A stretch of 64,000 nucleotides of DNA, the filler included, from Asterionella formosa (lineage: Eukaryota), in NCBI GenBank assembly GCA_002256025.1. It is 14 parts of 14 records of this genome, joined end to end, with 100 filler letters (N's around TTAATTAATTAA, not from the genome) between each part and the next. Parts side by side here need not be neighbours in the genome. Positions count along the whole stretch, not along the records: positions 1 to 17,042 come from NKIB01004600.1; 13 more parts are not named here. The stretch is one strand, 5' to 3'. The position numbers were made by a program, and so were the translations under genes. Below the pieces are notes generated by a model. That model was not told where the DNA came from. It ran no database searches and saw nothing but the letters and a program-made list of their open reading frames with translations. Positions 1-17,042 of the stretch are shown here, in pieces; position 1 is the first letter of the stretch; every line of letters starts with the position of its first letter.

Positions 1-142
1 GATACACTGTGATCACAAATTAGTGATACAGTGACACTTTTGGAATGAATGAAATTCAGTTCAAATCGAGTTACCGTTGCTGATACATTTTCAAAAAAAT
101 TCAAATTCCGTGATACACGAAAAAAAATGATAAGAACGGCCC
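1..142. mobile_element. End of a PIF/Harbinger-type non-autonomous element (family A)
   Basis: Ends AAAATGATAAGAACGGCCC followed by TTA. The same TIR and subterminal sequence recur at 14391-14526, 5316-5425 (inverted) and 33291 onward (inverted). Confidence 0.8.
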
Positions 143-401
143 TTATCTAAAATCGACCTTGTATCACGTGTTCCAAAAGGAACATAGACTAACAGGGACT
201 GGTAGAGTACCTGGTAGTCTACTGCAGGCATGTATTGGACTAAATACACTGAATTCATTGTAAATACCAATAAACGTTGTTACAAGGAAGTGCCTGCATC
301 GCAAATGATTGTTGAAGCCATAAAATGATGAGACCATGGGGAAAAAGGTTAAGAGATTAGAAATTGAATTTTGTAGAACAAGTTGTACCATAACCTCCAC
401 T

Positions 402-2405
402 CTACATTTCGCCTTCCAAATCATCAATGTCCAGAATTTGCATACTAAACCCAGTATGCGATGGCGTATATGGATTCTCATCGCTTGCTTGTGTGTGGTC
501 CATTAGATGTGGTGAGTCATCGTCAGATTGCTCCTCAGGTGGCGCGTGCTCTGGAGTTCCCGCCGGAATTGACGAGTTCCGGCTGGTTGGAGCAGAAGCT
601 GACCAATCGCTGGTGCGAGAATTGGAGCGATCAAATTCACCAAAGCTATGGGAAGTATTTACAGGTTGTCGCGGCGAGGGGTCTGTGTCAGTAATGTTGG
701 AGACTTGTGATTGAAGTGGCCCGTTTTCGCTATTGACTTCGTCAGCAACTAATTCATCTAGAATTTGATCATCTTGTAAAATATCACTGCTTTGAGCTCG
801 TTGTAGAGCACTTGCTGCTCGAGCATCTTGGATAGCATCAGTACTCTGAGATCGTAGCCGAGTAATTGGCCGTCGAGCATCTGTCATGGGTTCATTTCTT
901 TTAGCTCGTAGTCGAATATCTGGCGGTCGAGTATCTATCATAGAATCACTGCTTTGAGCTCGTTCTCGAACACTTGCAGATCTAGCATCGGTCATAGTAT
1001 CACTGCTTTGAGCTCGTTCTCGAATACTTGTCGGCTGTGCAACACTACTGTCTGACTCTTCTGAAACGCCTTGCAGATAACTGTTGACAGCAACTGAATT
1101 GTATGGTGTACTACGGGGTTCGAAATATTGGTCATCGTTGCCCTCAGATGATTTTTGTATTCGATAGGAAGCATGACGCTGGCTTGGATGTTCGTACATT
1201 TGGTAAACGACAGGAGGCTCCCTGTGTATTTGGTTAGATGCAGAAACGTCAGACTCATCTGGCGATGGATAAGCGACCAGAGGCTTGTTTTGTACTGGAT
1301 ACGATGCCGAAATATCAGGCTCATGCTCCACAGGATAGCCATGGTTGGGAAAATAACCTTCATCATCCTTGGGGCGATACTTAGCTTCTCCCCGAGGCCT
1401 TCGTTCAAAATGAAAATAGCAGCCAGCCAGCCCTAGACCGGTGAGAATGGCGACGATGACGATAGCCGCAATGATAACTGGGTTTGGTCCAACGGCAGGT
1501 GGCGCCGGTGAGAACGATGGTGCAACGGTAGGCGCACCTACTAGTTGAATGGATCGAACGAAAATGATGTAATCTGGATTGTATGCCTGAAGAATTTCGA
1601 GACTATTGGCGTACCGTTGGGAGTCGGTAAGAAAGGGAGCGAGAACGAGTGTAGTCTCTGGAATGGTTCCAGATATAATCCCATAATGAATGATCTGGTT
1701 GTAAATAAATTCAGTACTTGGCCCGGAGGAAGGATTTGGCAACACTTGCGTGCCTGGTTCTGAGGAATTTTGCGACGTGAAAAAAGTCTTGACAAGAGTG
1801 ATGAGGATTTGCTCTCCAAAATATTCGTTCCAGTAATCCATGACCTCCGCACTTGTTAGATTTTCCCACGTGTCAATGTCTGTTGCATTCAGCAAAGGCA
1901 GACCATCTATAATAAGGCTCACATTGTAGATTTTAGCAGAAATCATGGTGATTGACGGTGCTTGCGACGGCAAATTCGACGGATGCTGCGAAGGATACTG
2001 TGACGGATATGTAGTGGGAAACGAGGAAGGCGACTCCGACGGGCTGACTGTCGGAAGCAAACTCACTGATGGCACTGCGGTGGGCTGCAATGAAGCACTT
2101 GGTATCGCACTGGGTAGCATGGACGGCGAGGGGCTCGGTTTGGTGGTTTCCGTTGGTGATACCGACGTGCTTGGTGATTCTGTAATCGTCGGGTGGGGCG
2201 ATCTAGTCGGAGCAAGCGACGGTGCTGTGGTGAGGGATGGAGATATTGAAGGCGCTTGCGACGAGTTTGGAAATAAGGTGGTGACATTGGGCTGGGTGGT
2301 TTGCTGTGCATGAGAGTTGAGTAGAAACGAGAGCAATAGAAGTAGGCAAGGAAGGTACTGGTAGCGCCTCTGTGATCCTCCAGCATTTCGACGGCAATGC
2401 TTCAT
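402..2405 (-). CDS. Type I membrane protein with mucin-like Pro/Ser/Thr ectodomain and long disordered cytosolic tail
   Basis: Long ORF, first ATG at 2405 (MKHCRR). Signal peptide LLLLLSFLLNSHA, PSxxPS repeats, TM helix VIIAAIVIVAILTGLGLAGCYF. Confidence 0.85.
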   Translation of the reverse strand: MKHCRRNAGGSQRRYQYLPCLLLLLSFLLNSHAQQTTQPNVTTLFPNSSQAPSISPSLTTAPSLAPTRSPHPTITESPSTSVSPTETTKPSPSPSMLPSAIPSASLQPTAVPSVSLLPTVSPSESPSSFPTTYPSQYPSQHPSNLPSQAPSITMISAKIYNVSLIIDGLPLLNATDIDTWENLTSAEVMDYWNEYFGEQILITLVKTFFTSQNSSEPGTQVLPNPSSGPSTEFIYNQIIHYGIISGTIPETTLVLAPFLTDSQRYANSLEILQAYNPDYIIFVRSIQLVGAPTVAPSFSPAPPAVGPNPVIIAAIVIVAILTGLGLAGCYFHFERRPRGEAKYRPKDDEGYFPNHGYPVEHEPDISASYPVQNKPLVAYPSPDESDVSASNQIHREPPVVYQMYEHPSQRHASYRIQKSSEGNDDQYFEPRSTPYNSVAVNSYLQGVSEESDSSVAQPTSIRERAQSSDTMTDARSASVRERAQSSDSMIDTRPPDIRLRAKRNEPMTDARRPITRLRSQSTDAIQDARAASALQRAQSSDILQDDQILDELVADEVNSENGPLQSQVSNITDTDPSPRQPVNTSHSFGEFDRSNSRTSDWSASAPTSRNSSIPAGTPEHAPPEEQSDDDSPHLMDHTQASDENPYTPSHTGFSMQILDIDDLEGEM
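783..1026 (-). repeat. 54-bp (18-aa) coding tandem repeat, about 5 units
   Basis: ATCACTGCTTTGAGCTCGTT recurs at 783, 945 and 999 (spacings 162 and 54). Peptide units RERAQSSD / RERAQSSD / RLRAKRNE / RLRSQSTD / LQRAQSSD. Confidence 0.85.
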
Positions 2406-2847
2406 TGTGCTTGTAATAAGGATAAGCTGTGCGACCAAAAGCGGAAAAGCAGCGACCCTTAACGAGCAATTGTCCGAACACAGTTCAAGTATTAAGAGTT
2501 CCTGTTGATACTGCGTTGTGGATTACAGATGGTGTGTTCCTTTTTGCACCATCACTGTTATTCTTCAGGGCTAGCATATCATGTTGTAGCATCAACCATC
2601 AGGCGGGACAAGAATTGGTGCTTGCACCAAGAAGCAACAAATACTTGAAAAAAATAGCCATATTTGTCATATGTCGTATATATATAAAAACCGTAGGGCT
2701 ATTATATTTAGTTAGTGAGTATGTAACGAGATGGCAGGGGGCTATTTTGCATCGGACGGTTATTGTCATAACGGAGGGCGACGGGCGGCGATGTTGGCTG
2801 CTACTTGCCTTTCAGGCACTGCCAGTAGTTGCAGGGTGAGATTACAT

Positions 2848-2873
2848 GGTACCGGTACCAGGTACCTGGTACC
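2848..2873. repeat. Stack of TA-delimited CCGG/CCAGG/CCTGG units
   Basis: TA-CCGG-TA-CCAGG-TA-CCTGG-TA. Includes the perfect palindrome GGTACCAGGTACCTGGTACC (2854-2873). Confidence 0.9.
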
Positions 2874-3252
2874 CTTCCTGGTCCAAATGGATACAACTCT
2901 GACCATTCAGCAGAATATAAATGTACCACAGGATCTCTATAAATACATGGAGTTGCACACCGGTAGGTCGTACCAGGTACACTCAATGATGGCATTTTAT
3001 CCACCTCGCCAGCGCGGAGTCAGCCGTATACGAAGAACAAATCCGTACGTACATTTGCTGACCAACAAACGGAGTAATTAAAGCCATACATGTAGAAAAC
3101 GCTCGACATTTAAAATATGATGACATAGACCAGCATGAAGCAATATGGTGTATTGAGAAAGATATCGGAATCCTGATATAAGTGCAAAAAATCTAAGTCA
3201 CTCCATGAAGAAAAAAATTCCAGGTGGAAACATGCAAAGGAACAGAATCTTA

Positions 3253-4928
3253 GAGCATCGCCACCGCATTGACCAAATACCAAGCCAATTGCAGTTGCAG
3301 GTCATTACACATCATGATGCGTTGTGTTGGTCGAAAAAGCAAAAATATTTTAGCCACCGCATCAACCAAGACCAAATATGCTTTGGTCTTGTTGAGGATG
3401 ACCCCTTATCAACCAAATATCAGGTATTTGGTCAATTAGACTCCGACCGTAGCCAAAAAAGGAGCATTTCTATTGGTTTAGATTGTGGCCATGCCAGCAA
3501 CATAACGTCAACTGTTTAATTGATCCACAAACGCTAACAATACACATTTACCTTACTCTCTTGATGTAGACAAATGATAAACTTCAGTACAAAAACCTTT
3601 GAATAATACTGGCAGCTATCAATAAAATGTTTTATTTCGAGTCTTTGACAATCCCAATAAGATATCGTCATCCATTGTCGTCAAAGCAGGATGCCACATG
3701 AGAAGGAGCAGCAGGAGCAGCAGAAGGAGCAGGAGCAGCAGCCAATGAGGATGATTCATCATTGGTTTCAGACAAAACCAAAGTTGGATTGTTTTGGCGC
3801 TGTCAAGAGCAACAATTGATAGCGATGTGCGAGTTTCGTCAAGGCAGCATTGTTCCTTGTGTACCGTGATGTGTCATCGTTGGCAGACTGCTGCATGTCC
3901 CTGGCTAGTATCAATATCTTCTTCCCTTGCCTGCAGATCAACATTATGCTCAAGTTTGCTCAGCATTCAGTGAAGTTATGCCATGGGTATATTGTGTAAC
4001 ATTTTACAGTGTCGATGGTTGATTAATCAGCTGAAGAATTTTAAAAATGTATCCAAGAGAGTTGCGCCATTTAACGAAGTGTTTCACACCAATAAAAGAA
4101 CTGTCGTTTAATGGAATAAAATGAAGGAGGGATTAGGTGTGATCCAATTGCATCTCAATAATTCAAGTGCTTCCAGTACTCCACTGTCACACCTGTCATC
4201 CACCACTGATGATTTTGATGTAGTAGATGATACCAAATGAAGGAAAAATAATATAGATTACATGTCAATGCTAGTATGATTGATTAGAAAGCTATTATCA
4301 CTCTAGCTAATTGGAAAAACGGAAGGTTTTTTAATTCTAGAATACCAATATTCAAATGCATAGTCATATTAGTTTTTGATGGGTAGTTTAGATAGGCGTA
4401 GTACTAGCTGCGTAAGAATAAGGAATTTACAGGAAACATGGTGCTACTATTATTCAAAAAACTACAGGTACAGACTACTGGTGGTAGCTAAGCGACTTCC
4501 TTTGATCCTCCCCCGCCTCCTCCCTCAGTTGCCTTTCTCGTTTTCTTCCTGTACTATATGTTTAACCGGTATGTACAGAAGTTTAGGATCGGTCGTCATC
4601 TGATGAGTCTCTATCGTTGCTCATTTCATCAGGCAGATATGTATGAGTACCCTGGTATGCTACCACAAACCACACAGGCCCCCATCATTTTCTTATTGGT
4701 AGTCATCGGGTTTATTAATATAACGATACACATGTAACAACATTCTAGTTCTATTTCTATTCACTAAAAGTTTCGGCGCGAGATTTGACTATTCTAGGAT
4801 TTGGTCGATGCGGTGGGAAAAAATATGAAAAATTCGACTATTGATAAAAAATTTCTCAACCAAGTGACATGTATTGATATTTCAACTGCAATTGGCTTTG
4901 GTATTTGGACGATGCGGTGGCGATACTC
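3253..4928. mobile_element. Non-autonomous PIF/Harbinger element (family B), 1676 bp
   Basis: About 45-bp imperfect TIRs (GAGCATCGCCACCGCATTGACCAAATACC... and ...GGTATTTGGACGATGCGGTGGCGATACTC), TTA on both sides (3250-3252, 4929-4931). Subterminal copies of the CCACCGCATC motif near 3353 and 4799. Confidence 0.85.
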
Positions 4929-4985
4929 TTAGTCAGACAATGCGAAGAAAAGTTTTCAGACCTGCACCTGCCCAATTCTGTATAA

Positions 4986-5903
4986 AGGCTGTTCTAATCA
5001 TTTTCATCATTTCCCCCTAGGAATCATAACTGTCCCCAAAAAAGGGGCTACAAAGCTTTTTAAAAAAATCTACGGGGGATAACTGCCACTTCTCTCCAGA
5101 TATGAGGTAATTACCATATCTGAATATAGATAGTAACCCTAAGTCAAGCAATCATGACTGTATATAAACATATGCAAAGTGGTCGTATTGGTGAAAGCTA
5201 AAAATATTTCCTTTAACTATTTTATTTAGTTGTATATACTGTGTAGATTGAAGTACATCATAAAATTATTTTGGGAAAAAACAGACCTTGAAATGTGTAA
5301 CTGTGGGGCCACGACCTTAATTTGAATTTTTTTGAAAATGTACTGTTAATGGCAACTTGATTTGAACTGAGTTTCATTCATTCCAAACTTGGCATTGTAT
5401 CACTAATTTGTGATCACAGTATATCATGGAGTAACACGGATCGTTAGCAGCAACAGCAGGCCAGCAACAAAAACTTAAATATATCTGAGCAGTAATATGT
5501 AAATGTGTAGTCTACATGAAAATAACCGGAATATAAAAATAAATATATCATGTGATGGAGCCTGTGTGTACATGCTACTGGTACCAGTACTGGGAGACTC
5601 GTCAACATGTTGTCATCAATGCATTGACCATGTTGATGCATTATTGGCATGAATCCATCAAAATGGCAAATGAGTCGCTGTGCCTTTGAGGTCAAATAGT
5701 ATATAACTGTATGAACAATACTACAATAGAGAAATAAATATAGATATATATTTAAAATTGCGTAAGAAATAAGGAATCTACAATTTAAAAGAATATTTGT
5801 CAATTTATAGTAGGAAGGCAAATAGAACTATTGATTTGTTTCAGCAATTAACTAGCTAAAGCTATGACATACTACAACTAGCCACAACGATACTATCATA
5901 TGC
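4986..5903 (-). mobile_element. Inverted, truncated copy of Harbinger MITE family A
   Basis: TAA|AGGCTGTTCTAATCATTTT TIR at 4986. 5316-5903 aligns by eye as the reverse complement of about 13845-14490. Confidence 0.75.
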
Positions 5904-5904
5904 C

Positions 5905-6725
5905 ATTAGGATTTGCAATAGTGGTGTGTGGCTAGAATTTGAATTATAGACGCCATTAGGTCAATCGATTGCACCAGTGGTGTTTTCGTGTTGCACTGTG
6001 ATGCTGATGTTGATTTTCCCTTCAACAAAATAAATTATTAAATTGGTGCTGGCATGTTAACAATTATTTTATCAGTGACAATAGTCATGATACACAGTAA
6101 TCAATGGCCATATCACTGAAACAGCATTGTCAGGCCTAACATGGCTGTAGCTAGTATTAGCTAGCTAGCGCCAGATATCTGTAACATCAAGCAAGTTGTG
6201 TTCATTTCTCTGCGACAATATGAATGTTGACATGGATACCATGGAAGATCCGGTAAAATTCTAAATGATCACTACAGACAGCATTGAGTTATACAGAGGA
6301 ACTAGGAGAAGATAAATAACTTCTTAAAATGAAGAAGACGGAGTGATTCAAGATGGACATCATGATGCCATCATGCCAGTAAAACAGGAAGGAAAAGATG
6401 TTTCTGAAGTGGTCTGCTCTACATTGGCTGGCTCATGAGGAAATTGTGGTAGTGCAATTGCTGGGATGATTGATCTCCTTACTAACAAAGTAATTGCCAC
6501 TGGGCGAATTCACGAACACGAAGTTGCCATTAGAGTTAGTAACAGTAGTCTGTAGGATGATGGGGCCGGTAGCACTTGGACCCTGTAGAGTAACATTCAC
6601 ACCCACCAAGTTGGCATCTCCAAAATCATTATTGTCGGTATTTTCCTTGATGCTTCTGGAGATTGGTCCAAGCAAAAAGTTACTTGGGGGATGCACTCAC
6701 ACTTAGAGCACTGCTGGGGCGCTCG
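5905..6725 (-). pseudogene. Decayed SdrD-B/Cna-B-like repeat protein fragment
   Basis: 6433-6696 encodes ENTDNNDFGDANLVGVNVTL...TTVTNSNGNFVFVNSPSGNYFV after an SAPSSA linker. A more degenerate second unit (ENTTGAID..., TTIANPNG) lies near 5905-6030. Stops and frameshifts are present. Confidence 0.6.
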
Positions 6726-7039
6726 TCAATGAAAAGAATTCAAAAACCGCCAGAAAGCTTGACATCAATCTCGCTATCAAACGCATCACTCAAATGATCA
6801 GAGAAATCACATACCCAACTGGATTGAGGGGTATAGGCGCTGTTGCTGAGCATCCTCATTATGAGAATCACTGGTGTCCTCATGATCATGATGGTGAACA
6901 AGAATGAAATGTCACAGTGGTCCAGCGTCAAGCATTAATATGCATTTAAGATAATTATGATGCTGTAAATCGAGCAAGGAATGTCAGCAAGATGATATAT
7001 GAATTTGCTTAAATGTGTAATGCCGGCAAGGTAATATGT

Positions 7040-7266
7040 GAATGTTTGATTGTCACTTTCATCATACAGCGCAAATTTTGTTTTCTCCAAATCAGCAATG
7101 TACTTGCCCAAAAACCCGACTGTACACAGCTCTGTTCCATCTTGGACAACCACAGCCTTCATCACCATCTGCAGCTCTTTCTCCTCACCAATCTCCACTA
7201 TTGTCAGCTTTGCCTGTTTGTGACACCACATAGGCTGAGTATTTCTCCATCTTGATGGGATGTCAT
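7040..7266 (-). pseudogene. Remnant of a stramenopile DGE..G....GRSC / DG.E.C.VGFL family protein (HIRAN-like, probably transposon-associated)
   Basis: MTSHQDGEILSLCGVTNRQS* then, in another frame, KAVVVQDGTELCTVGFLGK...LYDESDN. Family recalled from memory. Confidence 0.4.
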
Positions 7267-7699
7267 TTTCATGATGGTGTCCAACAAAATTATATGATGC
7301 TTTCTGGGACCTTCTTAGAATATAAAAATAATATGTTGTATTTTCTGCACATGTAAAATATTTGGGTTTGTAGCACCAGAGATATACTGAGGAGACAGGA
7401 ATGTGTGGAGGACAGAAGTATGGGATTTACGGCATGTGTTTTGGCATAGAGCAAAATTATGTCTACATTCAGCAACATAGATATAGCATAAATGTTTAAA
7501 TATCATTTTTGTTTGTTTAAAATGGAACTCTATCAATCTTGCACCAATTCCTATTTAATTCAAATATTCAAATGGACAATGAAATCTTGGGAATTCATAG
7601 AAGCAAACTCCTTGTTCCATGCCATTTTTACAACCCTAGCAACATTTTCTCCAAAATAGAGTTAAGCCAAGGGCTGCAACCTTAAACAAAGGGAAAAGA

Positions 7700-10600
7700 T
7701 TAAATGGCAAGAATAGACTTTGTCATGACACAATTTGTGCTTGTACAACAAAAACAAAGCCTTTGATAATAAATGAACCCCAAGTAATACCGCAATGTTG
7801 TCTTTAAGGCTGTCAAAGTTAGACTATCAGTATCATTGTGCATGCCTCTAAATGGTGCATAATGCGATTCTAGGCTCGTTCGATCCTCTAATGACAGAGA
7901 TGGTCTTGTTGCATGGAACGCATTACGAATGTGCTCTGTTTTGATATTTACATCACCACTACCGCCACTTCCCAAATAATCATGTACTGCTGCCAATTGT
8001 GCAGTGTCCACAACTGCCTTGAGATCTGCCGGGGACAAGTATCGGGAAGAGGTACTTGCTATTTCTTTGCACAGGGCTCCAGATTTCACAAAGCCCCTCA
8101 CTTTCTCGTCAACCTTTCGATTTCGAATAAGTTTAGAAAATACGTCAGTCCATTCGTACTCTGTCTCCGGAAGACCAATGTAAATATGCTTCTCAAGGCG
8201 TCCTGGACGAAGCAAGGCTGGATCAATCATACCAGGTCTTGATGTGGCAGCAACAACATAAACACGATCAAGGGTGCTTTCTACGCCATCAAGAAAGGTC
8301 AACAGTTGATTCACGACTCGATCTGTTACACCGGTAAGATCAGTCCCACGACGCGGGGCCAGAGCCTCAAATTCATCCAGAAATAAAAGTGATGGCGCAG
8401 CAGCTTGAGCACGTGCAAATAACTGGCGAACTTTATGCTCAGACGCACCAATGTACTTGTCCAAAAGCTCAGGACCGTGACAAGTAATGAGCGCCAAGTC
8501 ACATTCGCTCGCTAGGGCCGGCGCAATGAGGGATTTACCACAACCGGGTGGACCAAAGAGGAGAAGACCTCGAGGCAATTGTGTAGGTGCTTTTTCGTAG
8601 ATTCGGCGGTATTTTACGGGATGTAATATCGCAGATGCAAGTTGCTTCTTTGCTTCGAAGAGTCCACCAATATTATCCCATTTAAAAGCTAGGGACGTGG
8701 CTTCGCCTCGAATACCTTGCCTTGAAAATGGAATAAACCTTTCGACTGCAATGTTAAGTGAAGAATGGAAGGCGCACTCCTCGAATGCAGCTAGATTCGA
8801 ACATCTAGAAATCAGCATTTTTGAACGCAACTCATGGCAGACGATCGTTGCTAGTCGACCAACATCACCTGGTCGATATCCCTCGAGTCTTTTGATGATA
8901 TCAGGTGGTATGCGTGTGAATGGCACTTCCAAAAAGTGACGGATCACTACCGACAGCATTTGACCGATCTCGATTTTTCCTAAAGGAGGAAGAGGTATGA
9001 ACTCGAAGAGTCGATCATGGGGTAATGCGGTTGAGGCTAAAGACTTCGCCTCATTACATGTGATCAAAATCTTGACATGATTATCCAAGGCTTGTGCCAA
9101 CAAACAAAAGTGGTCGGCAATCAGTTTTGTTTGATCCAACTCAATTGGGTTTATTTGCAGGCTACTGATGCTACTCTCCCCGCTAGTCGCGGTAACGTGA
9201 TTCGGTATCAGACGATCAAGATTGTCGAGTACCAAAAGAGACGAACGCGAAGTTGAGGCAAGTTCGAAGACTGCACTCAGCTCTTCCAGAGTGTCTTGCA
9301 TCCGAATCTCCCCAGCTGACTGAAGTCTCTCGCAATCTAAGTAGACTGTTTGTCGAGATGATCGCAAACGAGATACAGCAGCGAGTACAAGTGAGAAGTG
9401 GGACTTCCCAGCGCCTTTTTCACCGTAGAGTATTATTCCGTCGCAGGAAAGTAAGTGCAATTGAGCATTCGACATCAAGTCTCGCAGTGGTTCAGTGACC
9501 ACGTCAGGAATGTCTGGCAAACAATTTAGTAAATCGCAGTTCGTTGGGGAAGTCAGCACTGCAAGATTATTTCGGCTGATAGACTCTTGAGTAGATGGAT
9601 TGGATTGAAGTGGAAGAGTTATGATGTCTTGAAAGCGGACTAAGTTATCATGTCCAAAAGATGAATTTGCCTGAGCGTGGATAGAGACCCGGTACAGACT
9701 ATTTATCGACATGGATACGCCTTCACTCCAAGGCAAAGGAATTATAGTGCCATCCGTAATGGGAAAACTCCCGAGACTTTCCGAAAGTACATTCATGGAA
9801 GACAGGTCGGATCGTATATTCTCATCGGCACCAGGAGTCAATGAGCTGGAGGAGTAAGGAGTCGAGACACAAGCAGGATATCGCCAAGCTGCCATTCTAC
9901 CATTTTTCAAATCGTGTTCAACTTTGATGGGATCGATAGAGATAATGGTTTTCCCTTGCTCCACGAGTTTCCTTGTATGGTTGAATGTTTGAGATTCTCG
10001 CTTTCTGCTCATAAGGTGAATAATCACCATTTCGTCAAGCGGTGCGATTCCGAGCTGAAGGCGTGTCAAATAATTCAAAGCTAAAATAAAGAGAAACGAG
10101 TTAATGACACGAACGCTGCAAAATGTAAGGCTGTTGTTTTCTCAGAATCAATTGGAGGTTTAATCGTCAATGAATATATAAATATATTTCAGAATTAGCA
10201 TGGTTTGTTCCTCATCGAAAACACAGCCCGCAAAGGATAACAACATCAAAATACTCACCAACATGACCCGTTAAGACCTCGTCCGAGGCCACGATCTGGA
10301 CAACGGCTTGTCTAGGTGTGTCAGACGCGCCGACTTGTGATCTCACAATGAATGCAATAGGGGGCGTGCCATCGTCGGCGATGACTTTCCAATCTGGTAA
10401 GGAGCGCTCCAATGTTTCTGTATGTGCCATGAGCGTAAATGGGGGTACCATTGGTCCATGAATAAGCTCGCGGGTGGCTAGGGCTTGCATTTGCGGAGAC
10501 CAATCGTCCCAAGAAGGAACGACGCGAAGCGGACAACTTGGTTGTGGCTCCATAATCTTGGGCCGTGGTTTGGGAATAACAATCACTTCTGTGGTCGCAA

Positions 10601-11366
10601 CCAGGCGGCAGCAGCCATAGTCGTTGAGAAAAGTTGAAGGTACGACGCGGACCTGGACAGAGTCCCTGTGTCCTACTGCCAGCGTTAGAGTTTGATTCGG
10701 GTAGACAACGGTGACTTGAGCCAGTAAGCCGCCACGTTCAAGGGATTCGGCATGAATCTCCAAGAGTTCCCAATCTTCTGTGGTTAAAGGCTCCATTTCA
10801 ACAGAAATAGCATCAAAAACTTCTGGAAGTGCCTTGACGAATGCAAATTGTCCTTCTACATTGTCAAGCTGGGAAGGTATTTCAATAACCCCTATAAAGG
10901 AAGCACATCGGGTGTAAGCCAGCAGGAATTCACAAAGATAGCCACGGATATCGCGCTATTGGACCTCAGAAGGAAGGCAGCAGTGTGGATATCAACATGT
11001 ATGCGTTCTGTGGTAGTGACAATTTTGAAACTGACTCATCTCTGGCCGGAAAAAAATAGCGAGCACAAATAACTTGAGTAACGTACCGTCACCTTCTAAG
11101 GATCCTCCATTGTATGATGAGTAGATGAAATCTCCGGAATCAAATACAATTTTGAGAGGAAGAAACTCAATGTTCCAAGATGAGGACGAAAGTATCGACC
11201 ATCCATTGGATGGATAAAGATGGTCCGTGGCTGTCAGTGCTGCATCCTCAAAAAGGTCTCGCGCTGTCCGAAGCGACAGGCGCGCGAACAAACACCACTT
11301 CTTCGATTCTCTGCTATCTCCTCTTAATTGTGATCTTGTTCGGACACGGAGTCGTCGTTCCGTCAT
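7700..11366 (-). CDS. PEX1: Peroxisome biogenesis AAA+ ATPase PEX1; exons 11366-11087, 10891-10259, 10080-7700
   Basis: PEX-1N motif EPLTTEDWELLE; D1 GEKGAGKS/VLDNLD; D2 GPPGCGKS/FLDEFE, GPELLDKYIGASE, DPALLRPGRL. Both GT-AG introns restore the frame. A possible third intron (7790-7681) would end the CDS at 7662. Confidence 0.92.
10136..10222 (-). ncRNA. Intronic box C/D snoRNA (snR53-like D' guide plus a second 18S guide)
   Basis: In PEX1 intron 2. Stem GTTTTC/GAAAAC, C box tcGATGA, guide CCATGCTAAT-t-CTGA (D'), C' TTGACGA, guide CCTCCAATTGAT-t-CTGA (D). Guides are complementary to the conserved 18S segments ATTAGCATGG and CAATTGGAGG. Confidence 0.85.
10962..11047 (-). ncRNA. Intronic box C/D snoRNA with two 18S rRNA guides
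   Basis: In PEX1 intron 1. Stem GGCC/GGTC, C box gaGATGA, guide ATTGTCACTACC-a-CAGA (D'), C' ATGTTGA, guide TGCTGCCTTCCTT-CTGA (D). Complementary to 18S GGTAGTGACAAT and AAGGAAGGCAGCA. Confidence 0.88.
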
Positions 11367-11917
11367 GCTAAGCCGATGGCATCTCGATCATGATTGAACA
11401 CGTCGAATAAGGAGAAAAGCGGAACAACCATTGGTCACACAAAAATGAGGATTTGCGTTCATTTCTTGGTCCCATGCAAACCTACTGCAGACGACTTCGT
11501 ATTGTATTAGGGTACCGGTAGTACCTGGTACTGTACGAAATTTATGTGGAAATGGAATTGTGATGGTGTATGTTATAGAATTGTCAGAGTGTGTCTGTTA
11601 GGCTGTTGATGTCGACAGGTGTCCGGAGACCAGGTAGTCTGAGGAATGTCCAAACGGAAATAGACAGGATTTATAAAGCAGAATGATACGCAAACGAGCG
11701 GCGCGAGAAAGATCTTGACCGATCATTCCAGGGCAGTACTGGAGAGCGCTAGAGTAGGGGCCATATATTTCAACATAGAATATGGTCGACAGTGGTAGGG
11801 TCTACCCGAGTTTTCAAATCGTCCAGTACATAGACACAAATACCGGTATACCTGGTACCCGATCATATCATGTTATAAAAATACCGGTGTCCGGAGTACG
11901 TACTTGGTACCCAGATA

Positions 11918-11997
11918 CCACCAAGTTGCGGTAGTTAAGCAATTTACCTACATTTTCCTTATAGTAAAAACCATCATTTATTACCGCAACTCCTATG
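11918..11997. mobile_element. Degenerate 80-bp TA-flanked mini-element (family C)
   Basis: TA|CCACCAAGTTGCGGTAGTT ... ATTACCGCAACTCCTATG|TA. Same TIR core as 13197-13563 and 14139-14234. Confidence 0.55.
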
Positions 11998-12157
11998 TAA
12001 AGGTAACCATCTGGTAGAGTACCAGGTATCCTTCTTACTCACTTACTATTTCGTATTCTTACCTGTACAAATACGTATGCTAGACAATACATACGCACTT
12101 TCTACATATATACCTGGTACCCCTGCTACCATGTACTAGGTACCAGGGTACCTGGTA

Positions 12158-12962
12158 CCGTAAACCCTGGTGTATGATATCCCCCCACGTACCTGTATCC
12201 CCCTTGGTTCACCTGGCGCAACACTCCCAAATATTTTATGTTTACAGAAAAAATTACAGCATATTATTGTATTCTATTTGTTAATACATTTATAGCATAA
12301 TTGCATTCTTACTGGTCAACATCATGAAACAACAATACAAGTGATGCCAATGACATTTGTGATGGCAATTTCCTTGGCCTGAGATATATTTCAACAGTCA
12401 AAGCTGCAAGTTGCAAGCTTGTTGTGGTGCGATTGACAAGCTGAATGCTACAAGCTCAGGCAGTGGTCATGCTGGCCTAGATATTTTCGGCTTGCCAGAA
12501 GTGTTCAAAGAATCATTTCGTCTGCTACCTCATGATGCAGAAATATTTCGCGCAGGTCATAATTCTGGTCCAATAGCTAATTATAGTATAAGTGATGTGG
12601 TTGCTGGCTTATATTAATATCCATCACAATCCAAGTCGTAGAACCTACACAAATTAATACCGCTGTAGGTTGGGTACAAAAGTGTACACACTCTAGGAAT
12701 TACTATAGATGCTATCACGAAACTTGGGCGCACCAGAGCACCAAAAAAAAAATTCTATTGATCATAGAAACTGTTTGAACCTAAAACAATAAATCTTTTA
12801 AAGTTGCGATTTATGTTTAGGACCATGGAGAAAACAGTGGTGAATTTGGTTTGCTCAGAATATTTGGCGATCAAAAAAGGGCCAATGTCTTGTACTCCCC
12901 TCTGAGTAATTCAATCATGACTGGTGTGAACATTGATGGGTGCAAGACATCATGTTTTACAG
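12158..12962. mobile_element. Possible TA-flanked Tc1/mariner/pogo-type non-autonomous element (family D)
   Basis: TA|CCGTAAACCCTGGTGTAT at left; right end reverse-complements to TA|CTGTAAAACATGATGTCT. Imperfect TIR pair. Confidence 0.45.
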
Positions 12963-13196
12963 TATACTATGCCTGTAATTATGTGTACATTTCATTTACA
13001 TTTGCTTATTCTTTATTATCCCTTTTTGCCTGGCTGTGCATAACATAAATAACTGCATTGTTGTTACCTCCTGTGTTATTTCTTCATAGAAAATATTCTT
13101 TAGAACGTCCAAGAAACCATGCATCCTTTACCAGAGGTTCATGTATACATACCGAGTTCGCAAAAAATTGATGTCACCATCAAGCAAACCAATCTA

Positions 13197-13563
13197 CTGC
13201 AAGTTGCGGTAATTTTTCTGAAATGGACAAAGTGATGCAGGATAGCAGGCGCTCAAAAAAATAGAGAATATCATCAATTTTCTCTTTGAATCGACAGTTT
13301 CATGACTTGTCAGTGAGGCAGGTTTATGATAATTAATTCGTCTAAACGCGGAAACATCAAAATGAGGAGGGCAGATAGCTGAAAAAGAGAAATGACAAAG
13401 TTACCCTGTTTGGAAGAATAAAATTAGCTTAAAAGCTATGTCACCAAGGGGTGATCATAAAAACGATTTTAAAGAATGAATTGATGACGTTTTCATGCTA
13501 ATTAAATGCCTGTCCTACATCATAATATCAATTTCAGCAAAATGCATGACCGCAATTTGCTGG
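13197..13563. mobile_element. TA-targeting MITE (family C), 367 bp
   Basis: TA|CTGCAAGTTGCGGTAATT ... ATGACCGCAATTTGCTGG|TG. The right TA is mutated. Confidence 0.7.
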
Positions 13564-13648
13564 TGAGTGCCTTAGACGGCATAGTACTAGTGACATCATG
13601 TCTATGAATTAATTTATCATCAGAACACTCTGGCGGCCTCAAACCTTA

Positions 13649-14526
13649 GGGCTGTTCTTATCATTTTGTCATTGGTCGTCATTGGTGCATCATTTCCGGG
13701 TTTTGTTTCGAAAATGGTGGTTTGTATCATATTTTTGTATCACCAATGAGTTTTTAGGTCTGATCATTGGTGTATCAGCCACTGATACAGTTTTTGGACC
13801 CCTGACCAATGCTGTATCAGTGATACAGCCATTGATTACTGTGTCATATGATAGTTATTGTTGTAGCAGTAGTTGTAGTTATGGCTCCAGTTGTTGCTGA
13901 AACACAAATCAATAATTCTGTTTGTATTCCTATAAATGACGAATATTTTTTCCATTCTAGATTCATAATTTCTAATGCAATTTAAAAGGCATATCTATTA
14001 TTTTTCTATTGCATTGTCCATGATATTATATTCAAGACCTCAAAGGCACAATGACTCGTTTGCCACTTTGATGGATAAATTTGAGATCAACACCATGGTC
14101 AACACATTGATGACAAGCTGTTTTCAAGTCTACCAGTACCTGCAAGTTGCAGTAATTGTGCTGAAACTAAAAGTTTAGCTCTCTTTATCCGATATTGAAT
14201 TTTTTATTTAAGCTAAATGACCGCAACTTGCTGGTACTAGCATACCGGTACGTGTAGTCTCTGTTAAAGAAATTGGATAATATATACCGGTTTGACTATG
14301 TCTATGTAAAAACTATATATATATATGTACTCTAATATATTGATATGTTCGTCGCTGGCCTGTCTCAGTTGATGGCCCTTGTTCCACCATGATACACTGT
14401 GATACAAATTAGTGATACATTTTTAACTCGAGAATGAGGGGAATTCAGTTCAAATCGATTTTTTTTACCGTTGCTGATACATTTTCATATGATGTGATAC
14501 TCTATCCAAAATGATGAGAACGCCCC
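13649..14526. mobile_element. Complete PIF/Harbinger MITE (family A), 878 bp, with a nested family C element
   Basis: TTA|GGGCTGTTCTTATCATTTT ... AAAATGATGAGAACGCCCC|TAA. 19-bp TIR with 3 mismatches, TWA flanks. Confidence 0.85.
14139..14234. mobile_element. 96-bp TA-flanked mini-element (family C)
   Basis: TA|CCTGCAAGTTGCAGTAATT ... AATGACCGCAACTTGCTGG|TA. 16 of 19 TIR positions match; TA duplication. Confidence 0.8.
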
Positions 14527-14740
14527 TAACGCCACGTTGCAAATTTTCCTCTCAGGATGGGATGACGGAGGTTGACACCAATCAGCTGATCCTAAGTCTT
14601 ATCCAAATATTCTCGTAGCATTCCTATTGGTAGTTCTCATACTCGCTGGACGTCATGACTTCTTCTTGAAACCCGGACTTGAAGGGAAGTGATCGAGATG
14701 GGATCCACTCATTCCTCAACCCCCTTGTCCACTTTTGCGT

Positions 14741-14760
14741 GGTACCAGGTACCTGGTACC
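14741..14760. repeat. Perfect 20-bp palindrome GGTACCAGGTACCTGGTACC upstream of a gene
   Basis: Identical to 2854-2873; about 120 bp upstream of ATG 14879. Confidence 0.9.
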
Positions 14761-14878
14761 CTGGCACAGTATACCGGTAGATAGAAGCACTTTTTCAGCG
14801 GCGTTGTCATCAAGTTCGCTTGAAATCCCTCATATATTTTTCTTCTCTCAATTGCCTCAAACGAACGCAATTTGGAAA

Positions 14879-15465
14879 ATGGATCAAGTTGCTGCCATAC
14901 TGGGAGTCTATCTTCCGAATCTCAAGGCTAGAACTGCAGTAATGCAATTCCCATGCAAGGTTTCTCATCGGAGCTGTAGCCAAATGTGGGGAAATCATCG
15001 AGACTCAATGCAGCTCATCAAACAAGAAAACCACAGCGCCGCCGACGACGACACCGCGTCGACTTTATCTGCCAGCGACAGTGATCTATCTTTTTCTGGA
15101 AGCATTGTCACATTCGCTGACGTAGTGGTGACGGAAGTACACCTCCGTCCCTACACGACAATGGAAGAAAAATACTCTCTCTATTACAACGACTACGACT
15201 ACTCGGAGTTTCGAAGGGAATGTTTTTCCGGAAAGAGGCGCAACCGTCGTGTGCGCTTTGCTGACTCTGTTGTCTCTGATGTTCATATTATTTCTGTAAC
15301 GGAGAATACAGCGCAAATGTTCTACACTGAATCCGAACTACAAAAGTAAGTTTTGATTTTGCCGGAATATTGTATGCTTTGTTTGGCACATTTCTGACAT
15401 TTTTGATTTTCAGTTTCTTGGATGAATTCGTTGCCTCACTTGACAAGGGATTTGGATTTGATTGA
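14879..15465 (+). CDS. Hypothetical protein with two V.F...V..V / (Y/F)Y...e modules and an RVxF motif; exons 14879-15345, 15414-15465
   Basis: GTAAG...TTTCAG intron (68 nt) restores ELQNFLDEFVASLDKGFGFD*. Motifs IVTFADVVV and RRVRFADSVV. Confidence 0.75.
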
Positions 15466-17042
15466 ATCAAACGAAAGAACAGTGATTGAGTCTCACTGCA
15501 GATGCATGCATTGAATGGCTCGTAAAAGTTCAAGAACGCCGTGTCTCGAGGATCGAACTGTCGACCACTTGCGATGACAATCGACCACATAATATTTCTT
15601 CCTGAGAAATTCTAAATGTGTGGTGGATATTTCGACCGACGAAATCTTATTTCGGTTCTAGAGCGGAAGCGTCCCCTCCTTTCAATAGAGAAAGCCTGAG
15701 TGTCGTGTTGCAGCTAAGGCCAAAGGAACCGAACAGGAGCGGAACATTTTGAACCAGATTATTAGCAACTGTGTCAATCTACCGCTTACATGATCTACTG
15801 GAGGGTCAATCAAGAAAAGCTATCCAAATGTAGCCCTAAAATTACATCTATTTACTCCTTTCAGTGAAGAATTTTTTGCGCCCTGAAGTTTTCTAGCTCT
15901 CTCGTACATCGACGATATGAATCAGTATTTTCAGCTATAACTGACATGCTAGCTAAAACATGTGCTACCTGGTCGACAAGTCGCTTGTTTAAAATTATAA
16001 CCAGACTCTACATTACTTACCGGTATCCTGATGGATATGTAGATAGAAACGGGTTGGCATGGAGCAAGAGGAATACAAGAAGCAAGCACCGTTATATTGC
16101 TTGTAATTCTACCTGGTACGCACTCCGAGTACGCACATCATGAAAAGAGAACAAATTCTGCGATGACGTGACAGACTGACGACTGGCCGGCTACGCACCT
16201 GCATTCTACAGATATTATACCTGGTACCTGGTAACAGGAACGTCCGCTGAAGAATGCCTAAGTGAGGATGAGATCAGCTGAAATGCTCATTGCTCCTCGC
16301 TCCTCGCTCCTTGCTTTTGTTTACACCGGAGATTGACTCCGTTCCTCGAGGGGAGGGATACTGCCACATCATACGTTTCTACTAACCATGCAAAAAAGGG
16401 ACATGTTCGATAAGGAAGAAGCCATCTGAAGCTTGCCGGCTCGCTGTCGGTACGCAATTAATTACTCACTTTGTACACATGCGACATTAGGAAGTCTACA
16501 CCGTAGCATATACCAAAAATTTCTGAACGAGAAGAAAGACCCCCAGTCATCCCAGCCAGATCAGAAGTAATTACTGTACCGGTACCTGAATTGGTAAAAT
16601 TAAAGCGAAGTTGTATTTTCCTGTACGCCTCTGGTAAGTGTCTACTTGGTCATTTTAAGGTTCCTGCATTTGAACCCCTAGGCAGAAATTAAAATATTGC
16701 ATAGGGTTGCCGAAATTCCCTGGAACTAAGAACTTTTATGTGCTAATTTGAATATCAATGATTCCGTTTGAAAAATTAAAATGAGTGGAAATTTGCGCGT
16801 ACGTATATAGATTCCATTTCAAATGCATAAAATATGTAAAGATAGATTCTTCATCGATGAATGTTTTACATTGCTACTCTACCGATAGTACACCTACTCG
16901 TATCATAAATATGTTTCACATGCACGACCCGGCGGCTGCAAAATATATTTGAATGTGCAAACTATCGGTACTAAGGTACTGGTTAGCGTGCACTACCATT
17001 TACTATGACGAATGATGATCAGTTACCTGGAACCGGTAGGTC

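Follow-up and report, generated by a model that had tools for sequence, protein, structure and literature searches.

Two putative box C/D methylation guides in the introns of PEX1 of the diatom Asterionella formosa

Closest described guides and the two PEX1 cassettes

Box C/D snoRNAs (small nucleolar RNAs) of the U83/snR52 and snoR53Y/snR53 types are the closest described relatives of two predicted RNAs, snoRNA 1 and snoRNA 2, lying in introns 1 and 2 of the minus-strand PEX1 gene of the diatom Asterionella formosa (GCA_002256025.1), within the window, the whole stretch of 64,000 nucleotides (nt) that was analysed. In such guides, the target is the base paired to the fifth nucleotide before the D or D′ box. 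Regarding the published sites, cited by PMC number from the parts of each source that were available, RiboMeth-seq in Arabidopsis gave A468 (SnoR17), A545 (SnoR41Y) and A801 (SnoR53Y) in 18S ribosomal RNA (rRNA), spaced by 77 and 256 nt, SnoR53Y being assigned to U6 A48 as well (PMC8053127). Neurospora has Am417 (snR52/U83), Am538 and Am793, with CD11 directed to both 18S-Am793 and U6-Am47 (PMC2780460), and in Ostreococcus A405 is the snR52/U83 site, with Ot-CDsno96 directed to 18S A770 and U6 A51 (PMC7671301 supplement). The human and yeast equivalents are human Am512 for the snoR17 site, yeast Am541/human Am590 for the snoR41Y site and yeast Am796 for the snoR53Y site (PMC3511168).

The two elements are very probably ordinary intron-encoded box C/D methylation guides carried in the PEX1 pre-mRNA, their families being known and their lineage-conserved host newly noted. 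What is new is the PEX1 host, its apparent conservation and the presence of snoR53Y and snoR41Y guides on a single RNA. snoRNA 2 shares the D′ guide with its box, the 18S site and the second target in U6 with snoR53Y (RF01279), yeast snR53, Neurospora CD11 and Ot-CDsno96; however, in Arabidopsis, Neurospora and Ostreococcus the snoR53Y- and snoR41Y-type guides are carried by separate RNAs, and those of Ostreococcus (snR53 and snoR41Y) are adjacent genes of one intergenic cluster, whereas here both guides lie in PEX1 intron 2. snoRNA 1 shares the D guide, box D and 18S site with U83 (RF01179, RF00593), snR52 (RF00335), Neurospora CD42 and Ot-CDsno73, and the RF01179 consensus also contains part of a snoR17-like 5′ guide, as in snoRNA 1. 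The U83/snR52 RNA is intronic in Neurospora and Ostreococcus, as it is here, but its host elsewhere is an armadillo-fold gene, and snoRNA 1 differs from that type in having A for U at the second position of box C and CAGA as its D′ box. In addition, the second target of Ot-CDsno73 is C434, whereas that of snoRNA 1 is the snoR17 site. The second guides of the two PEX1 snoRNAs aim at the sites of snoR17 and snoR41Y/snR41/U62, being carried here, unlike in those RNAs, as second guides on U83- and snoR53Y-type molecules. An example of a similar layout is the Ostreococcus nucleoporin gene ostta10g02140, a host outside ribosome biogenesis with two C/D snoRNAs (Ot-CDsno90 and 91) in consecutive introns, differing from PEX1 in both host and snoRNA families.

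Guides, boxes and predicted targets

The first-pass annotation placed a C/D′/C′/D cassette with a terminal stem in each of the 195-nt and 178-nt PEX1 introns, and this was confirmed for cassettes of 86 and 87 nt, both introns being spliced. Against this genome's own 18S rRNA (L001), the four longest Watson–Crick matches of the introns are the four guides (12, 14, 10 and 12 nt), each stopping 0–1 nt before a D or D′ box, so that the earlier statement of four guides matching 18S stands, with lengths of 10–14 nt rather than 10–13 nt. When each intron was dinucleotide-shuffled 2000 times and compared with 18S, box position not being used, the best match length was equalled in 2/2000 shuffles for intron 1 and 36/2000 for intron 2, and two matches of at least 10 nt occurred in 37 and 42 shuffles, respectively. 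The sole match to the partial large-subunit rRNA contig of the same genome (L006), a 12-mer near the 3′ end of intron 2, lies outside the cassette and has no box, and was rejected as a target.

Both cassettes carry CUGA as box D near the 3′ end, internal D′ boxes and candidate C′ boxes (Table 1) and a stem around C and D, with GGCC/GGUC (4 base pairs, bp) plus a 7-bp outer stem in snoRNA 1 and GUUUUC/GAAAAC (6 bp) plus a 6-bp outer stem, up to 12 bp, in snoRNA 2. Each box C has one mismatch to RUGAUGA, retaining the GA dinucleotides and a 3-nt bulge after the stem. These deviations, the CAGA form of the first D′ box and the fit of the second D′ guide to U6 were absent from the earlier description, the core of which (box C/D guides for 18S 2′-O-methylation, one per PEX1 intron) is borne out by guides, boxes and conservation as far as these can be judged from sequence.

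The proposed comparison with Rfam models matched the guide families named above, in both cases below the gathering score: snoRNA 1 matched snoU83 (RF01179) at 36.8 bits (E 2.9e-4; gathering 50) and snoRNA 2 matched snoR53Y (RF01279) at 38.7 bits (E 2e-5; gathering 43), followed by further weak matches of the cassettes to snR52, U83B and U6-53, and the window as a whole holds 0 matches at gathering. The assignment of the predicted RNAs to the snoU83 and snoR53Y types is consequently by guide and target, not by the Rfam threshold. These scores, the deviating C boxes and D′ box, and the lack of any RNA contig over cassette 2 in four runs, from libraries not expected to hold it, would also suit decayed relics or chance matches with no working RNA in this species. 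That is highly improbable, considering the four perfect guides to the species' own rRNA, each ending at a box, and the shuffle results, together with the conservation of the cassettes in orthologous introns and the lack of another recognised copy for sites methylated across eukaryotes. Moreover, the U24 of this genome, which scores over gathering, shares the C-box variant of snoRNA 2.

The predicted 18S targets are A144, A188, A268 and A525 of L001, spaced by 44, 80 and 257 nt. The A144–A268 and A268–A525 distances, 124 and 257 nt, compare with 121 and 255 nt in Neurospora, and the last two spacings, 80 and 257 nt, with 77 and 256 nt in Arabidopsis. By guide identity and spacing, and not by rRNA alignment, the four predicted sites are old and widely shared ones. 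The two guides within snoRNA 1 (11023–10970) are separated by 28 nt, and the 18S sites that they pair with (L001:140–196) by 31 nt in antiparallel order, so that one RNA could hold both sites simultaneously.

Regarding U6, of which one gene was found in this genome (L009), the D′ guide of snoRNA 2 pairs with it over 11 bp plus one G–U, with A54 of the U6 match (Arabidopsis U6 A48) as target. The fit is slightly better than that to 18S, at -16.8 versus -14.4 kcal/mol, and snoRNA 2 probably guides U6 methylation at A54 as well, a dual role already published for Arabidopsis, Ostreococcus and Neurospora and not new here. The position preceding the core guide on its 5′ side holds A in 3/3 DNA loci and pairs with U6, which was considered as a U6-specific compensatory change and discounted because the Rfam snoR53Y consensus also has A at that base.

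Following established C/D biology (PMC7671301, available part), each spliced-out PEX1 intron would be debranched and trimmed to about 86 nt, Snu13, Nop56, Nop58 and fibrillarin would assemble on the C/D kink-turn, and the base opposite the fifth nucleotide before D or D′ would be 2′-O-methylated, resulting in modification of the four 18S adenosines and probably of U6 A54. Alternatively, the guides could be real while the RNAs arise independently of PEX1 splicing, either under promoters of their own or by cleavage of the unspliced pre-mRNA. Unspliced RNA does exist, as a single 151-nt contig of run X2 (10942–11092) spans exon 1 into intron 1 and covers cassette 1, and the long outer stems of both cassettes could be cut by an endonuclease. 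On the other hand, only 36–39 nt separate the 5′ splice site from the cassette in both introns, and the host strand, one cassette per intron and a box D 61–74 nt from the 3′ splice site form the usual intronic layout (PMC2780460), making independent production quite unlikely.

Conservation and the meaning of the host

Regarding conservation at the DNA level, a metagenome scan with a 9-sequence alignment gave 21 PEX1-like loci from 125 candidate stretches. The closest to this PEX1 are L019, L020 and L021, with 38–40% exon 2 identity and a confirmed PEX-1N domain; L019 equals L020 over the compared stretch, leaving two distinct orthologous loci, and both cassettes are kept at these, in full in L021 and partly in L019. 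Their introns (1637–1860 and 2539–2754 in L021; 2162–2444 and 3186–3434 in L019) agree in place and phase with those described here. L021 retains all four guides with their boxes, the D′ box of snoRNA 1 being CUGA, and its cassette 2 matches snoR53Y at 30.1 bits, under gathering. In L019 the guides of U83 and snoR53Y type are retained and those of snoR17 and snoR41Y type are lost, one per cassette; the segments replacing them have no match of at least 10 nt to the 18S, partial large-subunit rRNA or U6 of A. formosa. Around the cassettes the intron flanks have diverged in both loci, with box D invariant. Rfam scans of 10 of the 21 loci matched these families only in L019 and L021, all weakly. 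The other 18 loci, taken from their sequences to belong to more distant eukaryotes, have none of the guides together with its box in the stretch compared, four of them having an unbroken frame across the region. A scan of assembled-genome contigs gave one weak match, in a bacterial bin, and a scan of viral contigs found no related PEX1 locus.

Protein fragments point the same way. A search with exon 2 listed 150 homologues, 137 of which are short open reading frames (ORFs) reading on into intron 2, of the kind made by an intron-blind gene caller. Glycine stands at the exon 2 end in 121/137, and the next residue is K, T, E, M or R in 117 of these 121, as expected for a G|GT splice boundary. The translated snoR53 guide occurs in 24/137 fragments (box included in 16, a Pro-Cys-stop end in 9, both in one), 23 of them at 16–29 codons into intron 2 and one at 82, compared to controls of 0 box-type motifs in 38,372 residues and 0.43 expected Pro-Cys ends. 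Among intron tails of at least 30 amino acids, 13/22 carry this footprint. A U83-guide-like motif was also seen at 6 N-terminal ends in 4,440 residues versus 1 in 27,709 control residues, although P0095, among these six, is a doubtful case and is left unmarked in the tree. In that FastTree tree (149 rows, 195 columns, weak deep nodes), footprint-positive rows are scattered, with three in the Chaetoceros protein clade. Of the 20 proteins whose taxon was sought, three clusters bear a name: Chaetoceros in the first, a ciliate transcriptome in the second, where the PEX1 sequence is probably from prey, and an amoebozoan PEX1 in the third. Taken with the DNA loci, this means that the feature is conserved beyond this species, apparently across related PEX1 genes.

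When fragment ends were scanned without restriction for footprints combining an antisense stretch with a box, the 42 hits obtained versus 32–48 in five shuffles were rejected as noise. Within that noise level, the intron 2 read-through of P0062 and P0150 has FPIDTPE just after a C-box-like stretch. This hint at the protein level is compatible with a D′ guide aimed 3 nt upstream of the snoR41Y site, and the intron 2 snoRNA may have been re-targeted in this clade. A broader scheme in which the PEX1 introns are an ancestral, diatom-wide single-copy carrier of the guides for the four 18S sites and the U6 site, selected so that small-subunit and spliceosome methylation scales with peroxisome biogenesis, and with the intron 2 slot re-targeted in some lineages, is unlikely.

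Several points weigh against two ordinary, working guides in a conserved host. Both Rfam scores are under gathering, both C boxes are non-canonical, and the inner stem of cassette 1 has only 4 bp, one of them G–U. Neither mature RNA nor methylation was observed in the runs, which consist of contigs of ordinary RNA-seq libraries. Regarding conservation, two guides out of four are gone from L019, the orthologous DNA compared comes from no more than two independent loci, with no taxa attached, and 9/22 tails of at least 30 amino acids have no strict footprint, 3/9 showing near-footprints. Furthermore, long retention in one host fits drift with single-copy lock-in and also selection for co-expression.

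The host was first described as unusual, intronic snoRNA hosts being mostly ribosome or translation genes, and this is overstated. In Ostreococcus, 72/131 snoRNAs lie in introns; ribosome biogenesis accounts for 33% of the hosts and RNA processing for 18% (PMC7671301), and the other hosts include genes for tubulin, SecY, prohibitin, cullin, a thylakoid protein, a transporter and a nucleoporin (PMC7671301 Table S3, available part). Hosts require only broad expression, and snoRNAs move between hosts (PMC3511168). In this genome, U24/SNORD24 (L045:1501–1586, plus strand; 54.1 bits, over the cut-off; box C AUGAGGA) lies in a predicted intron of a flavin adenine dinucleotide-dependent oxidoreductase gene (Pfam DAO). 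Non-ribosomal hosts are thus common, the baseline in this genome covering three families (U24, snoR38 and SNORD18, the last with weak matches only), too few for a host fraction. A snoR38-like RNA (L044:1501–1594, minus strand; 38.3 bits, below the cut-off) stands directly after a GTAAGT donor and possibly has a non-coding host, as its flanking frames show no Pfam match. A long inverted repeat at L045:2926–3023, with weak microRNA-family matches far below their cut-offs, probably represents a small hairpin of a transposon-like kind. Neither a report of snoRNAs hosted by PEX1 nor a diatom snoRNA catalogue was found in the literature on PEX1 and snoRNAs and on diatom or stramenopile snoRNAs, where an annotation outside the papers covered is possible, and the available parts of PMC4247016 and PMC10324135 hold nothing on a PEX1 snoRNA locus.

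A genome search with the four guide-plus-box patterns returned 10 matches, of which 4 are those in PEX1; the remaining 6 were dismissed as chance, since Rfam matched none of them at E up to 0.5 and visual inspection showed no C box where one would be expected. No further copy was recognisable with these exact patterns in this fragmented assembly, which a diverged copy or one in a gap could escape, and within those limits the PEX1 introns are the only recognised source of the predicted guides. Because of this, making both snoRNAs probably needs PEX1 transcription, and the earlier claim that the guides are tied to it holds in this trivial sense; regulatory coupling of the snoRNAs to peroxisomes is unsupported.

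Such coupling would be expected if diatoms had retained the snoRNAs in PEX1 under selection, so that 18S and U6 methylation tracks peroxisome biogenesis. The pairing of two snoRNAs with two introns, retained in PEX1 genes about 35–45% identical in exon 2, and the lack of another recognised copy agree with this idea. However, in Ostreococcus the snoRNA level did not track the host mRNA level (PMC7671301, available part), other lineages house the same families elsewhere (U83 in the armadillo-fold gene, snR53 and snoR41Y in the intergenic cluster), none of the 18 other PEX1-like loci has a guide plus box in the stretch compared, and L019 shows guide loss, making selected co-regulation unlikely. 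Under the preferred reading of ordinary guides, PEX1 would serve as a steadily expressed housekeeping host in which the snoRNAs settled early in the lineage and stayed as the only copies, their retention reflecting 'constrained drift' (PMC3511168) rather than peroxisomal control of methylation.

The locus adds two predicted RNAs, five predicted methylation sites and one conserved host for diatoms, pointing to a snoRNA–host pairing fixed within one lineage and different between lineages. In a diatom, deletion of PEX1 or silencing of its transcription could also deprive four 18S sites and one U6 site of their only recognisable guides, confounding peroxisome phenotypes, and the snoRNAs may explain the persistence of the two PEX1 intron positions. 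The association would gain considerably in importance if PEX1 regulation were to be tracked by the levels of the snoRNAs or by methylation.

Gene structure and coordinates

The PEX1 gene lies in positions 1–17042 of the window, a single genome contig, and encodes 1097 amino acids in three joined exons (Table 1). The database protein P0001 has the same length, with 10 residue differences. The order of domains, PEX-1N followed by two AAA domains, is that of PEX1 in Pfam terms, and homologues of the N-terminal half include PEX1-named proteins and a Chaetoceros protein. The identity rests on this half because, taken by itself, the C-terminal part gives better scores against VCP/CDC48 structures than against yeast PEX1.

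RNA was required to fix the intron borders because 12 GT–AG pairings keep an ORF of more than 900 amino acids open. Contigs came from 4 of 16 listed runs, mostly lake or freshwater (X1, X2, X6 and X7). Intron 2 is precisely skipped in X1, X2 and X6, which belong to three studies, and intron 1 in X1 and X6; in X2 contigs the skip there is 196 nt, interrupted by a single letter, and represents the same joint with a variant. X7 has short pieces only, with no PEX1 splice joint seen. Alternative splice sites were ruled out, the contigs backing only 11086/10892 and 10258/10081. The lack of cover over cassette 2 in the four runs is uninformative because ordinary RNA-seq libraries drop 86-nt RNAs.

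Table 1. Coordinates in the window of PEX1 and of the predicted snoRNAs with their parts
Feature	Position	Strand	Remarks
PEX1 exon 1	11087..11366	-	start ATG at 11366; start matches P0001
PEX1 intron 1	10892..11086	-	195 nt, GT..AG, phase 1, RNA contigs
PEX1 exon 2	10259..10891	-	Pfam PEX-1N domain, PF09262, E 5.8e-17
PEX1 intron 2	10081..10258	-	178 nt, GT..AG, phase 1, RNA contigs
PEX1 exon 3	7700..10080	-	two AAA domains (PF00004, two stretches), to genomic stop
Box C/D snoRNA 1	10962..11047	-	predicted, 86 nt; U83/snR52-type D guide and snoR17-type D′ guide
snoRNA 1 box C	11036..11042	-	GAGAUGA, non-canonical second base (A for U); after 4-bp stem 11047-11044
snoRNA 1 D′ guide	11012..11023	-	pairs with 18S L001:185-196 over 12 bp; A188 as predicted target (snoR17 site)
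snoRNA 1 box D′	11007..11010	-	CAGA (CUGA in L021)
snoRNA 1 candidate box C′	10992..10998	-	AUGUUGA; aligned at C′ in Rfam match
snoRNA 1 D guide	10970..10983	-	pairs with 18S L001:140-153 over 14 bp; A144 as predicted target (snR52/U83 site)
snoRNA 1 box D	10966..10969	-	CUGA, 74 nt from 3′ splice site
Box C/D snoRNA 2	10136..10222	-	predicted, 87 nt; snoR53Y/snR53-type D′ guide and snoR41Y-type D guide
snoRNA 2 outer stem arms	10228-10223 and 10134-10129	-	fold prediction
snoRNA 2 box C	10209..10215	-	AUGAGGA, variant also in this genome's U24
snoRNA 2 D′ guide	10194..10204	-	10 bp to 18S L001:522-531 (predicted A525); also U6 (predicted A54)
snoRNA 2 box D′	10189..10192	-	CUGA
snoRNA 2 candidate box C′	10164..10170	-	UUGACGA
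snoRNA 2 D guide	10147..10158	-	pairs with 18S L001:265-276 over 12 bp; A268 as predicted target (snoR41Y/snR41/U62 site)
snoRNA 2 box D	10142..10145	-	CUGA, 61 nt from 3′ splice site

At the 3′ end of the gene, a single X1 contig carries poly(A) at 7785 (7785–7792 region, minus strand), within the genomic PEX1 ORF, where its last two templated bases plus the tail would give an in-frame UAA and a protein end near that of the homologue P0002, and an X6 contig continues to 7626, retaining the longer C-terminus. The rest of the window (17043–64000) consists of other joined pieces with N runs, off the PEX1 contig. Upstream of the ATG, RNA contigs extend to 11433–11522, and about 215 nt upstream of it begins a very high-copy repeat (11582–11700), with a depth far above that of PEX1 in all four RNA runs.

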